A stretch of DNA of 64,000 bases, taken from an uncultured Verrucomicrobia subdivision 3 bacterium (GTDB taxonomy: Bacteria; Verrucomicrobiota; Verrucomicrobiia; Limisphaerales; UBA11358). Location of the stretch: the NCBI GenBank assembly GCA_903944085.1, contig CAJAQO010000286.1, positions 11,009-75,008 on the forward strand. The letters run 5' to 3'. Within the stretch, counting starts at the first letter, position 1; each line of letters begins with the position of its first letter. Shown here piece after piece: positions 52,722-57,587 of the stretch. The translations under genes were made by a program, and so were the position numbers. Below the pieces are notes generated by a model that saw nothing but the letters and a program-made list of their open reading frames with translations, did no database searches and was not told the origin of the DNA.

Positions 52722-53168
52722 TATTTTCTTAAGTGTTAGGTGTGGCGTTGAAGAAGGCGGCGCGGGCTTTGTAGCGCTGAACCGGGTTTTTTTGATCTCG
52801 GCCTCAATCGCAGCCAATTGGCGCTGATGCTCGATGATTTTATCTGGATCTCCCGCGTCGAATGTTTCGACCAACTCCTCGCGCTATTGCGCCAACCGTT
52901 GCAACTGGTGTTCGGGCGTCTCGCCCGATGATCGAACTGGCGGTGAGACGCCGCCGGCACTCGCCGCCGAGGACGGCCGCGCTACCTTGGCTCCGGTTCA
53001 GGGATGCAAGGCGCGAAATTCGTTCTCGAGAAATTCTTGCGGACACCCTTGCTCGGCACATGGGGGGCGATTGCCCGTCAAGTCAGCCGTGAAGCCAAAG
53101 CCAATTTTTATTTCGCCGCCGGTCGCTTCCTGCTAAAACTTTTGCAGGTGGATTTACCCAAACCAGCC

Positions 53169-56100
53169 ATGTCTCCGGTCACCGGCGAACGCCTCGTGCG
53201 CTTCATCGGCGACAAAATCCTTTTCTCCATCAACGCCGGCAGGAATTTCGCCGCGCCGAAAAACTGGCGCGCGCGACTCCGCACCAATCTCGGCCGCGCC
53301 GCCGCCCGCCGCCAAGAAATCATCTCCGCCCATGCCGGCCGGGCGGTGGTCGCCAATTCCTCCTGGCGGGACGTGCCGATGCAACCAACCGCCGAAGGCT
53401 GGGCCATTGAGCTGCCGCTCGCGGAAGTCGGCTACTTTCAGGCCAAGGCTTACCTGCTCGACGAAAAAAACTGGCAGCACTGGCCCGATGGCGCGGACGC
53501 CGGCATTTCGGTGCATCCGAATTTTGCCCGGACGGCGAACACCCTTTACTGCGCCTTCACCCGGCTTTTCGGGGCGACCAAAAATCTCGCGGCCACCGCC
53601 GATGAAAAATTGGATACGCAGTTGAAATCGCTGGAAGCGCAAGGCTACGCCACGCTGCCGCCGTCGGGCAAATTCCGCGACCTCACGCGGCAGTTGCCCT
53701 TCATCGTCAACCAACTCGGCTGCCGGATCATTCATCTCTTGCCGGTGCATCCGACGCCCACGACCTACGCGCGCTTCGGTCGTTTCGGCAGTCCTTACGC
53801 CGCGCTGGATTTGACGGCGGTTGATCCCGCGCTCGTCGAATTCGACCAATGCACCACCGGTATTGACCAGTTTTGCGAACTAACTTACGCGGCACATTCG
53901 CTCGGCGCGCGCGTGTTCATTGATATCGTCATCAACCACACCGGCTGGGGTTCGAGCTTGCAGGAAAATCACCCGGAGTTTTTCCTGAAAAATCCCGACG
54001 GCTCATTCGCCAGTCCCGGCGCGTGGGGCACGGTCTGGGAAGATTTGGTGGAACTCGAACAGCACAGCGTCAAACTTTGGGATCTCATCGCCGACTCGCT
54101 GCTCGTCTGGTGCCGGCGCGGCGTGGATGGTTTTCGCTGCGACGCCGGCTACAAAATTCCCGCGCCCGCCTGGCAATACATCGTCGCCCGCGTGCAGGAG
54201 GAATTTCCCGAAACCATTTTTCTGCTCGAAGGTCTTGGCGGCTCGTGGGACGCGACGGAACTTTTGCTAACCGAAGGCGGGATGCAATGGGCGTATTCCG
54301 AATTGTTCCAAAATTATTCCGGCAAAGAGGTCGCGTGGTATCTCGACTACGCCAGCCGGCAAAATGAACGCGTCGGCAGCTACGTGAATTATTCCGAAAC
54401 GCACGATAACGACCGTCTCGCGAAAAAAGGCCGCGCCTGGTCGCTCCTGCGAAATCGGCTGTGCGCGCTGACCAGTCCGAGCGGCGGTTTCGGTTTCACC
54501 TGCGGCGTGGAATGGCTGGCGACGGAAAAAATAAAAGTCCACGGCAACACCGGCCTGAACTGGGACGCCGCCGAAAACATCGTGCCCGAACTCGCGCAGC
54601 TCAACCAGCTCGTCGCCGATCATCCATGCTTTTTCGACGGCGCAAGACTCACGCGCCTGAGTGCGCCCGATTCACCAGTTTACGCGCTGCTCCGCGAATC
54701 CGCCGAAGGCAAGGATTTCGTTTTAATTTTGGTCAACACGGAGCTGGAAAATCCAAACGCGCTGACGCTCGAAGTTTCCGCTTTCCACTTTCCGCTTTCC
54801 GCTTTTGCGTTTGATTTGCTCGGCCAGCCGCTCCCGAAAATTTCCGCCACCAAAAACGAAATCGCGTTCACACTTCCGCCGGGCGCAGTCTTCTGCCTCG
54901 CGCCGACCGAGAAACCTGCCGGTTTGAGCGGCGATAATTACCGCCGTGTCCGCGCGCAAGCCGCCTGGGCCTTGGAATCATTGAATAAAATCGTTGCCGC
55001 CGAAACCATTGACGGCCTCGACTGGCTGTGGCTCGCGGCGCAGGTTGAATCGTCGCCGAAAAATTTTCTCGCCGCTGCCAGCGAATTCGCCGCGCGCGAA
55101 GCCAAAACTTCGCTCGCCGATTTGTTGGCTGAAGTCAGCGCCGGAAAGGTTTTTCCCCGCGTGGTCGAATGGACATTGCTGGATGCCCGCCGCGTCACGC
55201 TCGTGCCGCCCGGTCATTGGCTGCTGATTGAAGATTCCGCGCCGTTCCGGGCCGAATTGCGAAGTCAGAAGCCAGAAGTCAGAAGTCAGAATGAAACTGC
55301 GGTCACGTGCCACATCCAGTCCATCGCCGTCGGCGACCGGCACATCGCAACATTTGCGCCGCGCGATACAACGGCCGAATCCAATTTAATTGTGGAACGC
55401 TACGCGACCACTTCGCCAAAAGTTTCCGCCGCCATTCGTTTTCTTTCCGCCAATCCGCAATCCGCAATCCGCAATCCGCAATCCGGCGACCTGGTTTTAT
55501 TGACGAATGGTATCGGCGGCATGGCGCGGCTGTGCGTGGACCTGGGCCGCATAAATTCCAAATACGACTGCGCGCTCGGCGCAAATCTGAATCCCGCCGT
55601 GCCGGTGGACCGCCACGTTTTGGTGAAGCGAATCCGCGCCTGGGTGAATGCGGACGGTTTTCTGTCGCCGTTGGATTTCAAAAATCTCGCGTCGTTCCAG
55701 CCCGGCTCGCCGGCCGTCTGGAATTTTGTGGCGAACGCCGGCGACGGCCGCACGGTGGAAATTGAACTGCGCGCGGAAATGCTCGACGGCAAAAACACCA
55801 CCGTTTTTTACTTTCGCCGGCCCACGGAAAAACTCGCACAGGGAAAACAGTTGCCTGCCGACGCCGATGTGCGCTTGACCGTGCGCGTGGACATCGAAGA
55901 CCGGAATTTTCACAGCGAAACCAAACGCAACAGCGGCGCGGATTTCCATTTCGCGTCGAATTGCCATCCGATTGGTAGCAGCCGACGTGAGGAGGCTCAT
56001 TCTAAAAAGGCGCAAGGCGGAAGGCAGAAGGCGGAAATTAATTTGAGCCTCGTCACCTCGGCTGCTACAGAATTATTAACGGGCTTCATCTTCACGCCCG

Positions 56101-57587
56101 CCCCTGACCGCCAGTTGCGCGTCTTTGCCGACGCCGGCGAATATCATCCGCAGCCAGAGTGGTGCGAAAACATTCCGCATCCGGTCGAGCAGACGCGCGG
56201 CCAAACCGGCAGCGGCGATGCCTACAGCCCCGGCTGGTTTGAAATTCCGCTCGCAAAAGGCACCGAGGCAACGCTGGTGCTGACGGCGGAAACGGAGCAA
56301 AGCAAAAGCGGAAAGCGGAAAGCGGAAAGCGGAAAGGCAGAAGCCAATTTTGAAGCGCAACTTGCACGCGCGGCGAAACAATTCGTCGTGCGCCGCGATG
56401 AGGGCAAAACGGTCATCGCCGGCTACCCGTGGTTTCTCGACTGGGGTCGCGATTCGCTGATTTGTGCGCGCGGGCTTTTAGCCGCCGGCATGGTTGACGA
56501 GGTGAGGCAGCTTTTGCTCACGTTCGCCAAATTTGAAAAAGACGGCACGCTGCCCAACACGATTCACGGCAACGACGTTTCCAACCGCGACACGTCGGAT
56601 GCACCGCTGTGGTTCGCGGTCGTGTGCGAAGAAATTTCCAAGATTAAAAATCCGAAATTAAAAACCAAAGATTTTTACGCGACGCTGGTGGATGAAAATG
56701 GCCGCACCCTCCGCGACGTGCTCGCGAGCATCGCCGAAAACTACGCCAAAGGCACGCCGAACGGCATCCGCATGGACGCCGATTCCGCGCTCATCTGGAG
56801 TCCGAGCCATTTCACCTGGATGGACACGAATTTTCCCGCCGGCACGCCGCGCGAAGGTTATCCCGTCGAAATTCAAGTGCTGTGGATTCGCCTGCTGCGG
56901 CTGCTGGCAACTATTTCCGCCAAGACCGATCAAAAGAAATGGCAGGATCTCGCCGAACACGCGCTGGCCTCGTTTGAAAAACTTTTCTGGCTCGAAAATA
57001 AAGGCTGGTTTGCCGACGTGTTGATCGCCAAATCAAATGTCATCGCGCGCGACGCCGCGGCGAGCGATGCATTGCGCAGCAATTGTCTTTTCGCCGTCAG
57101 CCTCGGCCTCGTCACCGGCGAACGCGCGAAACGCTGCGTCGCGGCGGCGCAAAAATATCTCGTCGTGCCGGGCGCGCTGCGCTCGCTCGCACCGCTGCCG
57201 GTGGCCGTGCCGCTGCCGATTTTCAGCAACGACGGACGGCTGATCAACAATCCGCCGGAGCCGTATTGGCCGCGTTACGAAGGCGATGAGGACACGCGCC
57301 GCAAGCCCGCGTATCACAACGGCACGGCGTGGACGTGGACGTTTCCCAGCTTTTGTGAGGCGATCGTGCGTGCATGGGATTTTTCGCCGGCAGCCGTGGT
57401 GGCGGCAAAAGCGCATTTAGTCAGCGCGGAAAAAATTCTGAATGAAGGCTGCCTCGGACAAATCCCGGAAATTCTCGACGGCGACGCGCCGCACACGCAG
57501 CGCGGCTGCGATGCGCAGGCGTGGGGTGTGACCGAAACGCTACGCGTGTGGAAAATGTTGAATTCGCACGCTGCGCAGGCAAAATGA
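53169..57587 (+). CDS. bifunctional-looking GH13 alpha-amylase-family domain + glycogen-debranching amylo-alpha-1,6-glucosidase (GDE_N/GDE_C) fusion
   Basis: GH13 regions: FIDIVINHTG, DGFRCDAGYK, FLLEGLG and YSETHDND. The central part LLTNGIGGMARL ... DRHVLV is GDE_N-like. The C-terminal part is GYPWFLDWGRDSLICARGLL ... YHNGTAWTWTFPSF ... CDAQAWG (GDE_C). The ORF is open from 53004; ATG 53169 is preferred. It contains five translated repeat insertions. Confidence 0.8.
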   Translation: MSPVTGERLVRFIGDKILFSINAGRNFAAPKNWRARLRTNLGRAAARRQEIISAHAGRAVVANSSWRDVPMQPTAEGWAIELPLAEVGYFQAKAYLLDEKNWQHWPDGADAGISVHPNFARTANTLYCAFTRLFGATKNLAATADEKLDTQLKSLEAQGYATLPPSGKFRDLTRQLPFIVNQLGCRIIHLLPVHPTPTTYARFGRFGSPYAALDLTAVDPALVEFDQCTTGIDQFCELTYAAHSLGARVFIDIVINHTGWGSSLQENHPEFFLKNPDGSFASPGAWGTVWEDLVELEQHSVKLWDLIADSLLVWCRRGVDGFRCDAGYKIPAPAWQYIVARVQEEFPETIFLLEGLGGSWDATELLLTEGGMQWAYSELFQNYSGKEVAWYLDYASRQNERVGSYVNYSETHDNDRLAKKGRAWSLLRNRLCALTSPSGGFGFTCGVEWLATEKIKVHGNTGLNWDAAENIVPELAQLNQLVADHPCFFDGARLTRLSAPDSPVYALLRESAEGKDFVLILVNTELENPNALTLEVSAFHFPLSAFAFDLLGQPLPKISATKNEIAFTLPPGAVFCLAPTEKPAGLSGDNYRRVRAQAAWALESLNKIVAAETIDGLDWLWLAAQVESSPKNFLAAASEFAAREAKTSLADLLAEVSAGKVFPRVVEWTLLDARRVTLVPPGHWLLIEDSAPFRAELRSQKPEVRSQNETAVTCHIQSIAVGDRHIATFAPRDTTAESNLIVERYATTSPKVSAAIRFLSANPQSAIRNPQSGDLVLLTNGIGGMARLCVDLGRINSKYDCALGANLNPAVPVDRHVLVKRIRAWVNADGFLSPLDFKNLASFQPGSPAVWNFVANAGDGRTVEIELRAEMLDGKNTTVFYFRRPTEKLAQGKQLPADADVRLTVRVDIEDRNFHSETKRNSGADFHFASNCHPIGSSRREEAHSKKAQGGRQKAEINLSLVTSAATELLTGFIFTPAPDRQLRVFADAGEYHPQPEWCENIPHPVEQTRGQTGSGDAYSPGWFEIPLAKGTEATLVLTAETEQSKSGKRKAESGKAEANFEAQLARAAKQFVVRRDEGKTVIAGYPWFLDWGRDSLICARGLLAAGMVDEVRQLLLTFAKFEKDGTLPNTIHGNDVSNRDTSDAPLWFAVVCEEISKIKNPKLKTKDFYATLVDENGRTLRDVLASIAENYAKGTPNGIRMDADSALIWSPSHFTWMDTNFPAGTPREGYPVEIQVLWIRLLRLLATISAKTDQKKWQDLAEHALASFEKLFWLENKGWFADVLIAKSNVIARDAAASDALRSNCLFAVSLGLVTGERAKRCVAAAQKYLVVPGALRSLAPLPVAVPLPIFSNDGRLINNPPEPYWPRYEGDEDTRRKPAYHNGTAWTWTFPSFCEAIVRAWDFSPAAVVAAKAHLVSAEKILNEGCLGQIPEILDGDAPHTQRGCDAQAWGVTETLRVWKMLNSHAAQAK
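54775..54816. repeat. in-frame heptamer array (TTTCCGC-type, 6 units)
   Basis: tttccgc tttccac tttccgc tttccgc ttttgcg tttgatt, translated as VSAFHFPLSAFAFD. Confidence 0.85.
55261..55295. repeat. in-frame heptamer array (GAAGTCA-type, 5 units)
   Basis: gaagtca gaagcca gaagtca gaagtca gaatgaa, translated as RSQKPEVRSQNE. Confidence 0.85.
55451..55485. repeat. in-frame heptamer array (CAATCCG)x5
   Basis: Five perfect copies of caatccg, translated as ANPQSAIRNPQSG. Confidence 0.9.
55975..56068. repeat. 94-nt in-frame palindromic element: 25-nt terminal inverted repeats around an (AAGGCGG)x4 array
   Basis: The left arm gtagcagccgacgtgaggaggctca (55975-55999) and the right arm tgagcctcgtcacctcggctgctac (56044-56068) are complementary at 23/25 positions. 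Inside lies aaggcgc aaggcgg aaggcag aaggcgg (56007-56034). Translated as SSRREEAHSKKAQGGRQKAEINLSLVTSAAT. Confidence 0.85.
56305..56339. repeat. in-frame heptamer array (AAAGCGG)x4 plus degenerate unit
   Basis: aaagcgg x4 then aaaggca, translated as KSGKRKAESGKA. Confidence 0.9.

Follow-up and report, generated by a model that had tools for sequence, protein, structure and literature searches.

A probable GTAG-tagged REP doublet, with a heptamer array in its spacer, read in frame in a glycogen-debranching enzyme gene of a Verrucomicrobia subdivision 3 bacterium

Background

How does a long palindrome come to lie inside a gene that is read straight through it, and where does the tandem array of heptamers between its two arms come from? 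These questions are raised by a 94-nt hairpin at positions 55975-56068 of the window analysed here, which is a stretch of 64,000 nucleotides from an uncultured Verrucomicrobia subdivision 3 bacterium (assembly GCA_903944085.1, contig CAJAQO010000286.1, positions 11,009 to 75,008 of the forward strand). The hairpin lies in a gene for a glycogen-debranching enzyme. An earlier note on this DNA had taken it for a miniature inverted-repeat transposable element (MITE) with conventional terminal inverted repeats (TIRs), and perhaps for the minimal non-autonomous form of whatever moves the heptamer arrays. We arrive at another reading, which we consider highly probable: a head-to-head doublet of GTAG-tagged repetitive extragenic palindromic (REP) units lies in frame in a loop of the enzyme, and the array was amplified later, in place.

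The hairpin and its host gene

An inverted-repeat search found two arms of 25 nt each, 92% complementary (23/25) and with 44 nt between them, and inside this interval Tandem Repeats Finder reported a period-7 array with 4.3 copies of the consensus AAGGCGG. By our own estimate, about 1e-5 inverted pairs of 25-mers with two mismatches or fewer within 100 nt are expected by chance per 64 kb. The repeat searches and the open reading frame (ORF) bear out the earlier description of two such arms around heptamers, inside a coding sequence. The features are the following:

53004-57587, plus strand: host gene, a fusion of GH13 alpha-amylase-type, GDE_N and GDE_C (amylo-alpha-1,6-glucosidase) regions, 1527 amino acids (ORF and Pfam)
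55962-55974, plus strand: left flank (tgccatccgattg, encoding CHPI), common to all dimer-carrying orthologues and different from the REI/HVL-type loops of the dimer-free ones
55975-55999, plus strand: left arm, assigned as an 'L type' REP unit, with GTAG tag, AGCC/GGCT stem, tandem G.A, C-G closing pair and GTGA loop
56000-56043, plus strand: dimer spacer, 44 nt (46 nt with the arms counted as 24 nt)
56007-56036, plus strand: heptamer array, AAGGCGG x 4.3 (Tandem Repeats Finder and orthologue comparison)
56044-56068, minus strand: right arm, assigned as an 'R type' REP unit, inverted, with G-C closing pair

The 1527-residue ORF matched the Pfam models GDE_C (2.4e-68), GDE_N (2.8e-25) and Alpha-amylase (3.3e-07). 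The GDE_N match takes 259 residues for 216 profile positions and therefore contains the insert. According to the ORF, the element occupies residues 991-1022 and would be read through in frame, as had been proposed, as G991-T1022 (GSSRREEAHSKKAQGGRQKAEINLSLVTSAAT). The element itself has 94 nt, which is not a multiple of three; its net excess over the orthologues with an empty site is 96 nt (159 versus 63 nt between the conserved motifs that bracket the loop), that is, the 94-nt element and two more bases, which adds 32 residues to the enzyme. The aligned orthologues show that the element was inserted into a loop of the GDE_N region whose length varies. A comparison with solved structures aligned the GDE_C core only, and the insert loop fell outside the aligned part.

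A long hairpin in the messenger RNA, which the earlier note had expected, is also predicted by folding: a stretch of 114 nt reached -52.1 kcal/mol with RNA parameters against a shuffle mean of -29.5 (z = -6.8; none of 200 shuffles was as good), and the DNA fold of the hairpin stretch reached -25.8 kcal/mol (z = -6.3). Rfam 15 gave no match at E <= 1 on either strand of 55800-56250.

The arms as GTAG-tagged REP units

We searched the organism's own assembly (5.79 Mb in 335 contigs) for arms within three mismatches of a degenerate consensus, and obtained 57 arms. The arm follows the pattern GTAG-(C/G)-AGCC-GA-C-GTGA-G-GA-GGCT-C. Its tag is kept almost everywhere (G1 in 55 of the 57 arms, T2 in 51, A3 in 53 and G4 in 56), and its body consists of a stem of 4-5 bp, a tandem G.A internal loop, one covarying closing pair and a GNRA-like tetraloop. 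The closing pair, 12-17, was C-G in 33 arms, G-C in 22 and G-T in 2, and it was never unpaired; pair 8-21 alternates between C-G and A-T, positions 10/19 and 11/18 are nearly always G.A and A.G, and the central four bases are GTGA, GTAA or GCAA in 54/57 arms.

Regarding the support for this small hairpin, its covariation over 36 distinct arms was 0.276, compared with 0.086 in shuffles (0/500 reach it) and at most 0.093 in slid controls. Folding with RNA parameters gave the GTAG strand exactly this shape, with the stem, the 2x2 G.A loop, the closing pair and the tetraloop, at -6.5 to -11.5 kcal/mol, and the complementary strand does not take the fold, which makes it strand-specific. A variant of another genome, G023 (GAGTCGGCTC), in which the G.A/A.G loop becomes G-C and A-T pairs, also fits the hairpin.

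Since the right unit is inverted and carries a G-C closing pair, the dimer is a head-to-head heterodimer. Two mismatches, C.C and G.G, are conserved in its long stem, and both coincide exactly with pair 12/17, which is C-G in the left arm ('L') and G-C in the right arm ('R'). From these comparisons of sequences we conclude that each arm is a GTAG-tagged REP unit and that the pair is a head-to-head doublet of L and R variants, similar to the REP doublets that form hairpins (REPINs) and to bacterial interspersed mosaic elements (BIMEs).

Copies of the family in this and in related genomes

The 57 arms of the genome are arranged as 22 head-to-head dimers, with GTAG outside, and 13 solo arms; there was no tail-to-tail and no head-to-tail pair. 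Sixteen of the dimers are L/R heterodimers, four are L/L and two are ambiguous. Loci from other genomes gave the same picture, with 102 head-to-head, 5 head-to-tail and 0 tail-to-tail pairs. The arm was present in 50 of 61 related genomes and in 14 of the 25 genera of the order, with 2 to 272 arms per genome, and a control with the reversed pattern gave a single match across all 61 genomes. More than 120 public contigs contain exact matches to the arm, and their labels are mostly Verrucomicrobia, Limisphaerales or Pedosphaera. By its sequence distribution, the repeat family spans Verrucomicrobiota subdivision 3 (Limisphaerales, Pedosphaera-like) and is common in soil and peat Verrucomicrobia. 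The dominant variant changes with the genome, for instance GAGAC...GTCTC stems in G029, GTAA loops in G021 and the variant described above in G023, and this is the pattern of a family replicating within genomes.

These counts also decide about a purely local origin, in which a replication error or a hairpin-primed duplication would have produced the palindrome in a hypervariable loop, with no mobility and no relation to any family. The loop is indeed a hot spot, since the orthologues have many different inserts there; however, the same arm occurs 57 times in the genome and recurs in most relatives, while the reversed control is almost empty. This explanation is refuted, and we give it practically no chance.

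The copies are placed in two ways. Eight of the 22 dimers and three solo arms of the genome lie inside real genes and are read through; their hosts are UvrD, a DUF455 protein, a nitrogenase-like oxidoreductase, a Type ISP enzyme, a GH35 beta-galactosidase, Mfd, RecQ, RsmB/F, a transporter of the major facilitator superfamily and a chorismate-binding enzyme. On either strand, two frames of the palindrome are free of stops and encode SSRREEA...SL(L/V)TSAAT or VGDEVTSL...EPPHVGSY. Of the remaining 14 dimers, most lie 4-10 nt past a stop codon, often between convergent ORFs, and in one case (contig C38, position 78110) the TAG stop of the ORF is supplied by GTAG itself. In the relatives G012 and G011, the orthologous debranching genes carry dimers of the family at a different loop, which is dimer-free in the present genome.

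One locus of G011 (L035, contig C1, about 141.6-144.9 kb) holds a BIME-like tandem composite cluster, in which arms of the family alternate with a variant arm, GTAGGGGTCGAGGTCACGAGACCC. The cluster flanks, on both sides, one copy of a multi-copy IS200-like gene.

The insertion site in the orthologues

When the surrounding protein was searched against 30 relatives, the match was split in two nearly everywhere, and the skipped query residues, about 158-192, correspond to the element. Protein and DNA alignments of 11 orthologues of the same genus placed the blocks HFASN... and GF.FTPA on the two sides of a loop of 1 to about 20 residues, and the dimer was absent from all 11. One metagenome contig, Ga0182030_10018444, is nearly identical to the window in the stretch 55900-56150. 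A scan of metagenome contigs provided 80 orthologous loci, in 61 of which both flanking motifs could be located. Apart from a few other lengths, the distances between the motifs fell into five groups:

i) 63 nt. The site is empty (17 loci).

ii) 84 nt, that is, 21 nt more. These 16 loci mostly carry a heptamer array.

iii) 138 nt. Four of these 5 loci carry a REP dimer.

iv) 150 nt. The 3 loci carry a dimer with a 9-nt shift.

v) 159 nt. The 2 loci carry a dimer together with an array.

Thus one orthologous loop occurs in four states, namely empty, with an array, with a REP dimer, and with both. This is a natural experiment, and it separates two classes of repeats that the earlier note had merged. 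Compared across 72 relatives (loci L002-L012 and L179-L258), the same loop (55960-56080 in the window) holds unrelated heptamer arrays that differ by lineage, with units such as GAAATCC, AAAATTC, CCGAACT, CATCACG, AACATCC and CCCCGCG, and nearly all of them give a length of 84 nt (63 + 21).

The claim of a dispersed, non-autonomous palindromic repeat was to be abandoned if the arm proved unique in the genome and the segment conserved in the orthologues; the arm recurs in the genome and the orthologues lack the segment, so this claim holds on both counts. What does not hold is the conventional MITE with TIRs. Target-site duplications (TSDs) were looked for at 123 dimers and none was found, the lengths of direct repeats being equal to those of shuffled pairs of flanks, and the supposed TIRs are GTAG-tagged REP units, each with its own covarying mini-hairpin. 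The flanks adjacent to the dimer (CHPI... and ...ELLT) are without a clear counterpart in the loops of the empty sites, and the exact boundaries of the insertion were not recovered. No long element bounded by arms appeared among arm pairs up to 200 nt apart, the search for autonomous genes covering Y1 and REP-associated tyrosine transposase (RAYT) genes only.

Origin of the heptamer array

The evidence on the array comes from the two closest relatives, L180 and L181, whose flanks are 85% and 82% identical in nucleotides to those of the present gene. Both have the same dimer in the same flanks, with a spacer of 25 nt. In L180 the spacer reads attctaaaaa-ATCGGAA-ataaattt, and in L181 the heptamer is ACCGGAA, so that each contains a single unit. 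The spacer of the present genome is attctaaaaa-GGCGCAA-GGCGGAA-GGCAGAA-GGCGGAA-attaattt, with four units; this is a gain of three units or 21 nt, which keeps the frame. The aligned spacers point to an ancestral spacer of 25 nt with one heptamer, ATCGGAA or ACCGGAA. Because orthologous dimers have a single resident heptamer, the array is a later amplification in situ, from one unit to four, and not a cargo. In L192, an orthologue further removed, the corresponding position of the spacer is occupied by ATCGGCA x 4, and as this unit is one base off the resident one, its amplification was independent. The sequences thus show that the array does not belong to the mobile unit and that a lone heptamer can give rise to such an array in situ.

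Period-7 arrays of at least 24 nt are abundant in the genome, 362 of them with 82 different units, compared with 14 arrays of period 8 and 11 of period 9; the commonest units are AAAGCGG (41), AATCCGC (27) and AAAGTCC (21). The perfect arrays peak sharply at 31-32 nt (4.4-4.6 copies), with almost none longer than 34 nt, and this size distribution is not what slippage would give.

Are these arrays tied to inverted repeats? As a general rule they are not: an inverted repeat of at least 9 nt flanks 1.7% of the 362 arrays and 1.2% of random sites, and the idea that heptamer arrays are generally flanked by hairpins was rejected on these figures. A period-7 tract of at least 21 nt is held by only 6 of the 22 dimers of the genome and by only 13 of 98 dimers elsewhere. 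Even so, by our own arithmetic (362 arrays in 5.79 Mb), about 0.04 arrays would be expected in the 707 nt of dimer spacer, where 6 are found, and among the 23 spacers with a length of 43-50 nt there are 18 with an array. The dimer spacer is therefore a strongly preferred birthplace of arrays, enriched about 100-fold. The link that the earlier note had drawn between arrays and inverted repeats thus survives for the dimer spacers and fails for the arrays at large.

The same data weigh on the explanation by a conventional MITE, whose TIRs would carry the array as cargo and which would be the minimal vehicle spreading arrays through the genome. The inverted arms do bracket the array, arrays are strongly enriched in the dimer spacers, and stereotyped dimers of about 94 nt with spacers of about 46 nt recur in other genomes, most of the spacers in this range holding an array. 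On the other side stand the lack of TSDs, the 98% of arrays without a flanking inverted repeat, which is the level of random sites, the majority of dimers that have no array, the units that differ from one array-bearing dimer to another and the orthologous dimers with a single heptamer, in which the array is seen to have arisen in place after the dimer. We consider this explanation very improbable, and the notion of a minimal form of whatever moves the arrays has to be dropped with it, the array being secondary.

Regarding the mechanism, intermediates of two or three copies would break the frame, the change from one to four has been seen twice, and the spacer is preferred; together these points might speak for a dedicated process working in 7-nt steps, a reading that we hold to be rather doubtful. 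Such a process would act on extruded or single-stranded loops rather than through ordinary slippage, and the unpaired spacer of the REP-dimer hairpin would be a preferred substrate for it.

A 7-nt ladder of spacer lengths was also considered and dropped, as a period of 8 accounts at least equally well for the peaks, which lie at 17, 25, 37 and 46 nt. Two dimers of other Verrucomicrobia (L128:3907-4045 and L115:6474-6613) have spacers of 91-92 nt that contain two inverted heptamer arrays of the CGTAAAT type around a short unique core.

Mobilisation and history of the site

In the view put forward in PMC3733652, GTAG REPs owe their mobility to RAYT-type Y1 transposases, which would bind the hairpin of the REP in single-stranded form and cleave it at GTAG. 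By analogy with what has been proposed for other REPs and REPINs, it was probably a Y1 (HUH) tyrosine transposase, acting in trans, that moved the present doublet. The enzyme would recognise the small hairpin of each arm on single-stranded DNA, cut at GTAG and insert without a TSD; the arms, being the recognised part, would stay nearly invariant, and copies in coding DNA would survive only where the host protein is left intact, thanks to their length and to the two frames of the palindrome that lack stops. The absence of TSDs and the conserved tag and hairpin fit this model.

Some results weigh against our reading of the element as an inserted REP doublet, and they concern the fold, the history of the site and the transposase. 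Firstly, the hairpin of a single arm was no more stable than shuffles when folded with DNA parameters, so the support for it is comparative, from covariation, and from RNA parameters, and is not energetic. Secondly, in a tree of the flanks (185 amino acids, bootstrap not converged) the dimer-bearing sequences do not form one clade and at least five changes are needed. On this tree, which is short and weak, one origin of the dimer at the site was not supported; repeated insertion or loss of the dimer, or recombination within the loop, may lie behind the pattern as well as a single insertion. Thirdly, we searched for the transposase with PF01797 (own genome and five copy-rich relatives), with NF047646 (61 genomes) and with tblastn against 120 arm-bearing loci. 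Among about 46 loci of the own genome and 14 relatives, in fragmented assemblies and with flanks of 1.5 kb, no Y1 or RAYT gene was bracketed by arms; none was bracketed in the 30 Y1 loci of the five copy-rich relatives, the ten RAYT loci above the cut-off or the 120 arm-bearing loci. Two genomes with many arms, G007 (80 arms) and G048 (27 arms), had no NF047646 match. The free-standing Y1 genes of the own genome score as IS200/IS605 and not as RAYT, and other inverted repeats flank them.

Several observations belong beside this search. In G029, one dimer lies 1 kb from a RAYT gene. The Y1 gene that lies amid six arms at L035 was tried as a cognate and rejected: it belongs to a set of at least eight IS200-like copies that are nearly identical, and as the others are without arms, this copy probably landed in a REP cluster. 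The free-standing IS200/IS605-type Y1 genes of the own genome, at C163:536-1015, C299:2330-2809 and C37:3727-4239 each lie in their own palindrome-containing inverted repeats (e.g. CCCAGCCTGGGGCAATGCCCCAGG), which are unrelated to the GTAG family. An alanyl-tRNA synthetase ORF of the own genome, outside the window, on the minus strand of contig C239 (about 1000-1700, in a frame of 1075 amino acids) holds an in-frame RAYT-like Y1/HUH domain (NF047646, 76 bits), which is bracketed by an inverted repeat of 52 nt with 48/52 positions matching. A DnaE ORF of 1469 amino acids (C52:15183-15479) holds a similar domain, and the pattern of a RAYT-like domain in a long frame is present in more than 15 relatives.

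Conservation of the arms

In the dimer-carrying orthologues the arms (48 nt) are 96-100% identical, compared with 73-85% for about 500 nt of flanking coding DNA and 57-71% for third codon positions, and their spacers diverge freely. Among the more distant orthologues, the values for arms and flanks were 92% and 72-73% in L230 and L241, and 81% and 72% in L252. The REP arms are thus evolving far more slowly than the codons around them, and the alignments suggest that they are either under constraint at the nucleotide level or repeatedly renewed.

Constraint of this kind leads to an explanation in which the arms are nucleic-acid signals with a function for the host, instead of or besides being selfish DNA, and purifying selection keeps them even inside genes. 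They could be sites for binding or processing by a conserved host protein, or RNA structures that stabilise 3' ends, pause ribosomes between domains or are cut by an RNase. Apart from the contrast between the arms and the synonymous sites of the orthologous locus, this is favoured by nearly the same 24-mer being present across many genera of the order, by the GNRA-like loops and tandem G.A pairs, which are typical of RNA, by the strand-specific fold, by the extragenic copies that directly follow stop codons and by the failure to find a dedicated transposase. However, the number of copies varies 100-fold among congeners (from 2 to 272 arms), any one site is occupied only patchily, the dominant variant differs from genome to genome, as expected from a replicating family, and there is no match in Rfam. 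We therefore regard a host signal as unlikely, though less so than the MITE, and keep to the inserted REP doublet.

It is possible, but in our view rather doubtful, that two things hold, namely that arrays arise in one step, from a resident 7-mer to about 4-5 copies, and that the arms are under purifying selection at the nucleotide level even within coding DNA. Selection of this kind would mean that the arms work for a trans-acting factor conserved in the host clade, and that they are more than parasites.

Comparison with known systems

Intragenic GTAG REP dimers that encode 20-30 amino acids have been described before, with the largest numbers in Opitutus terrae, itself a verrucomicrobium (Di Nocera, De Gregorio and Rocco 2013, BMC Genomics 14:522, PMC3733652). 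Intragenic REP doublets in Verrucomicrobia have thus been known since 2013, and what is less ordinary here is the birth of an array in place and the conservation of the arms in coding DNA. The present family has the traits of the GTAG-tagged REP superfamily: the tag (GTAG or GYAG/GTRG), a short palindrome of 20-40 bp, dispersed and variable copies and a mostly extragenic placement. Like the REPs of the 2013 description, it has short stem-loop units tagged at one end, the head-to-head pairing with a spacer of 20-100 bp, heterodimers of variant units and extragenic copies just past ORFs, where GTAG sometimes gives the TAG stop (PMC3733652). In both, a minority of copies is in frame in ORFs and adds 20-30 amino acids, often in DNA-repair genes (here UvrD, RecQ and Mfd), and repair helicases are over-represented among the hosts (PMC3733652). 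The differences are the host clade, here Limisphaerales and Pedosphaera-like, the short stem (4-5 bp) with its tandem G.A internal loop and GNRA-like loop, and the amplified heptamer array in the spacer of the present subclass, which is not described in PMC3733652. The likeness is one of architecture.

With the REPIN-RAYT system (Bertels and Rainey 2011, PMC3116915; PMC3337134) the element shares two inverted REPs and a spacer that form one long hairpin as the propagating unit, solo arms that look like remnants, the absence of a TSD, a 'master' variant specific to the genome and a family that is long-lived across a whole clade. It behaves like a REPIN, but no cognate, usually single-copy RAYT gene flanked by REPs of the family (a REPtron) was found in the genomes searched; the RAYT-like genes of the clade are multi-copy, flanked by other TIRs or embedded in housekeeping genes. 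Moreover, a third of the present dimers are intragenic, which is unusual for REPINs. The BIMEs of E. coli, made of alternating Y and Z REPs, resemble the present dimers in having two inverted variants that form an imperfect long hairpin while the hairpin of each unit stays intact; they differ in being extragenic, often in tail-to-tail/head-to-head clusters with defined linkers (sites for the integration host factor), whereas here we see single head-to-head dimers with free spacers.

The Rickettsia palindromic elements (RPE), in so far as their description is cited in PMC3733652 (Ogata et al. 2000), are likewise palindromic, selfish repeats in frame in many genes and tolerated as surface peptides. 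Their sequences are presumably unrelated to ours, RPE-1 is longer and the phylum differs; the comparison is one of mechanism and outcome and not of homology. RPE-4 and RPE-6 have been equated with the intragenic CGTC-type repeats of R. conorii (PMC3733652).

Finally, the short tandemly repeated repetitive (STRR) heptanucleotide sequences of cyanobacteria are also short 7-nt arrays with many different units, dispersed through the genome including coding regions. They belong to another phylum, and the present arrays differ in their preferred size of about 31-32 nt and in that one of them was demonstrably born in the spacer of a REP dimer. The locus bears on how REP and REPIN sequences are maintained and on the source of the excess of 7-nt arrays in genomes of the Planctomycetes-Verrucomicrobia-Chlamydiae group and of cyanobacteria. 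The debranching gene itself holds four further in-frame arrays, of 4.4-5.6 copies each and none of them with REP arms:

54775-54805: array of TTTCCGC
55261-55291: array of GAAGTCA
55446-55485: array of TCCGCAA
56305-56336, plus strand: array of AAAGCGG x 4.6, no REP arms flanking

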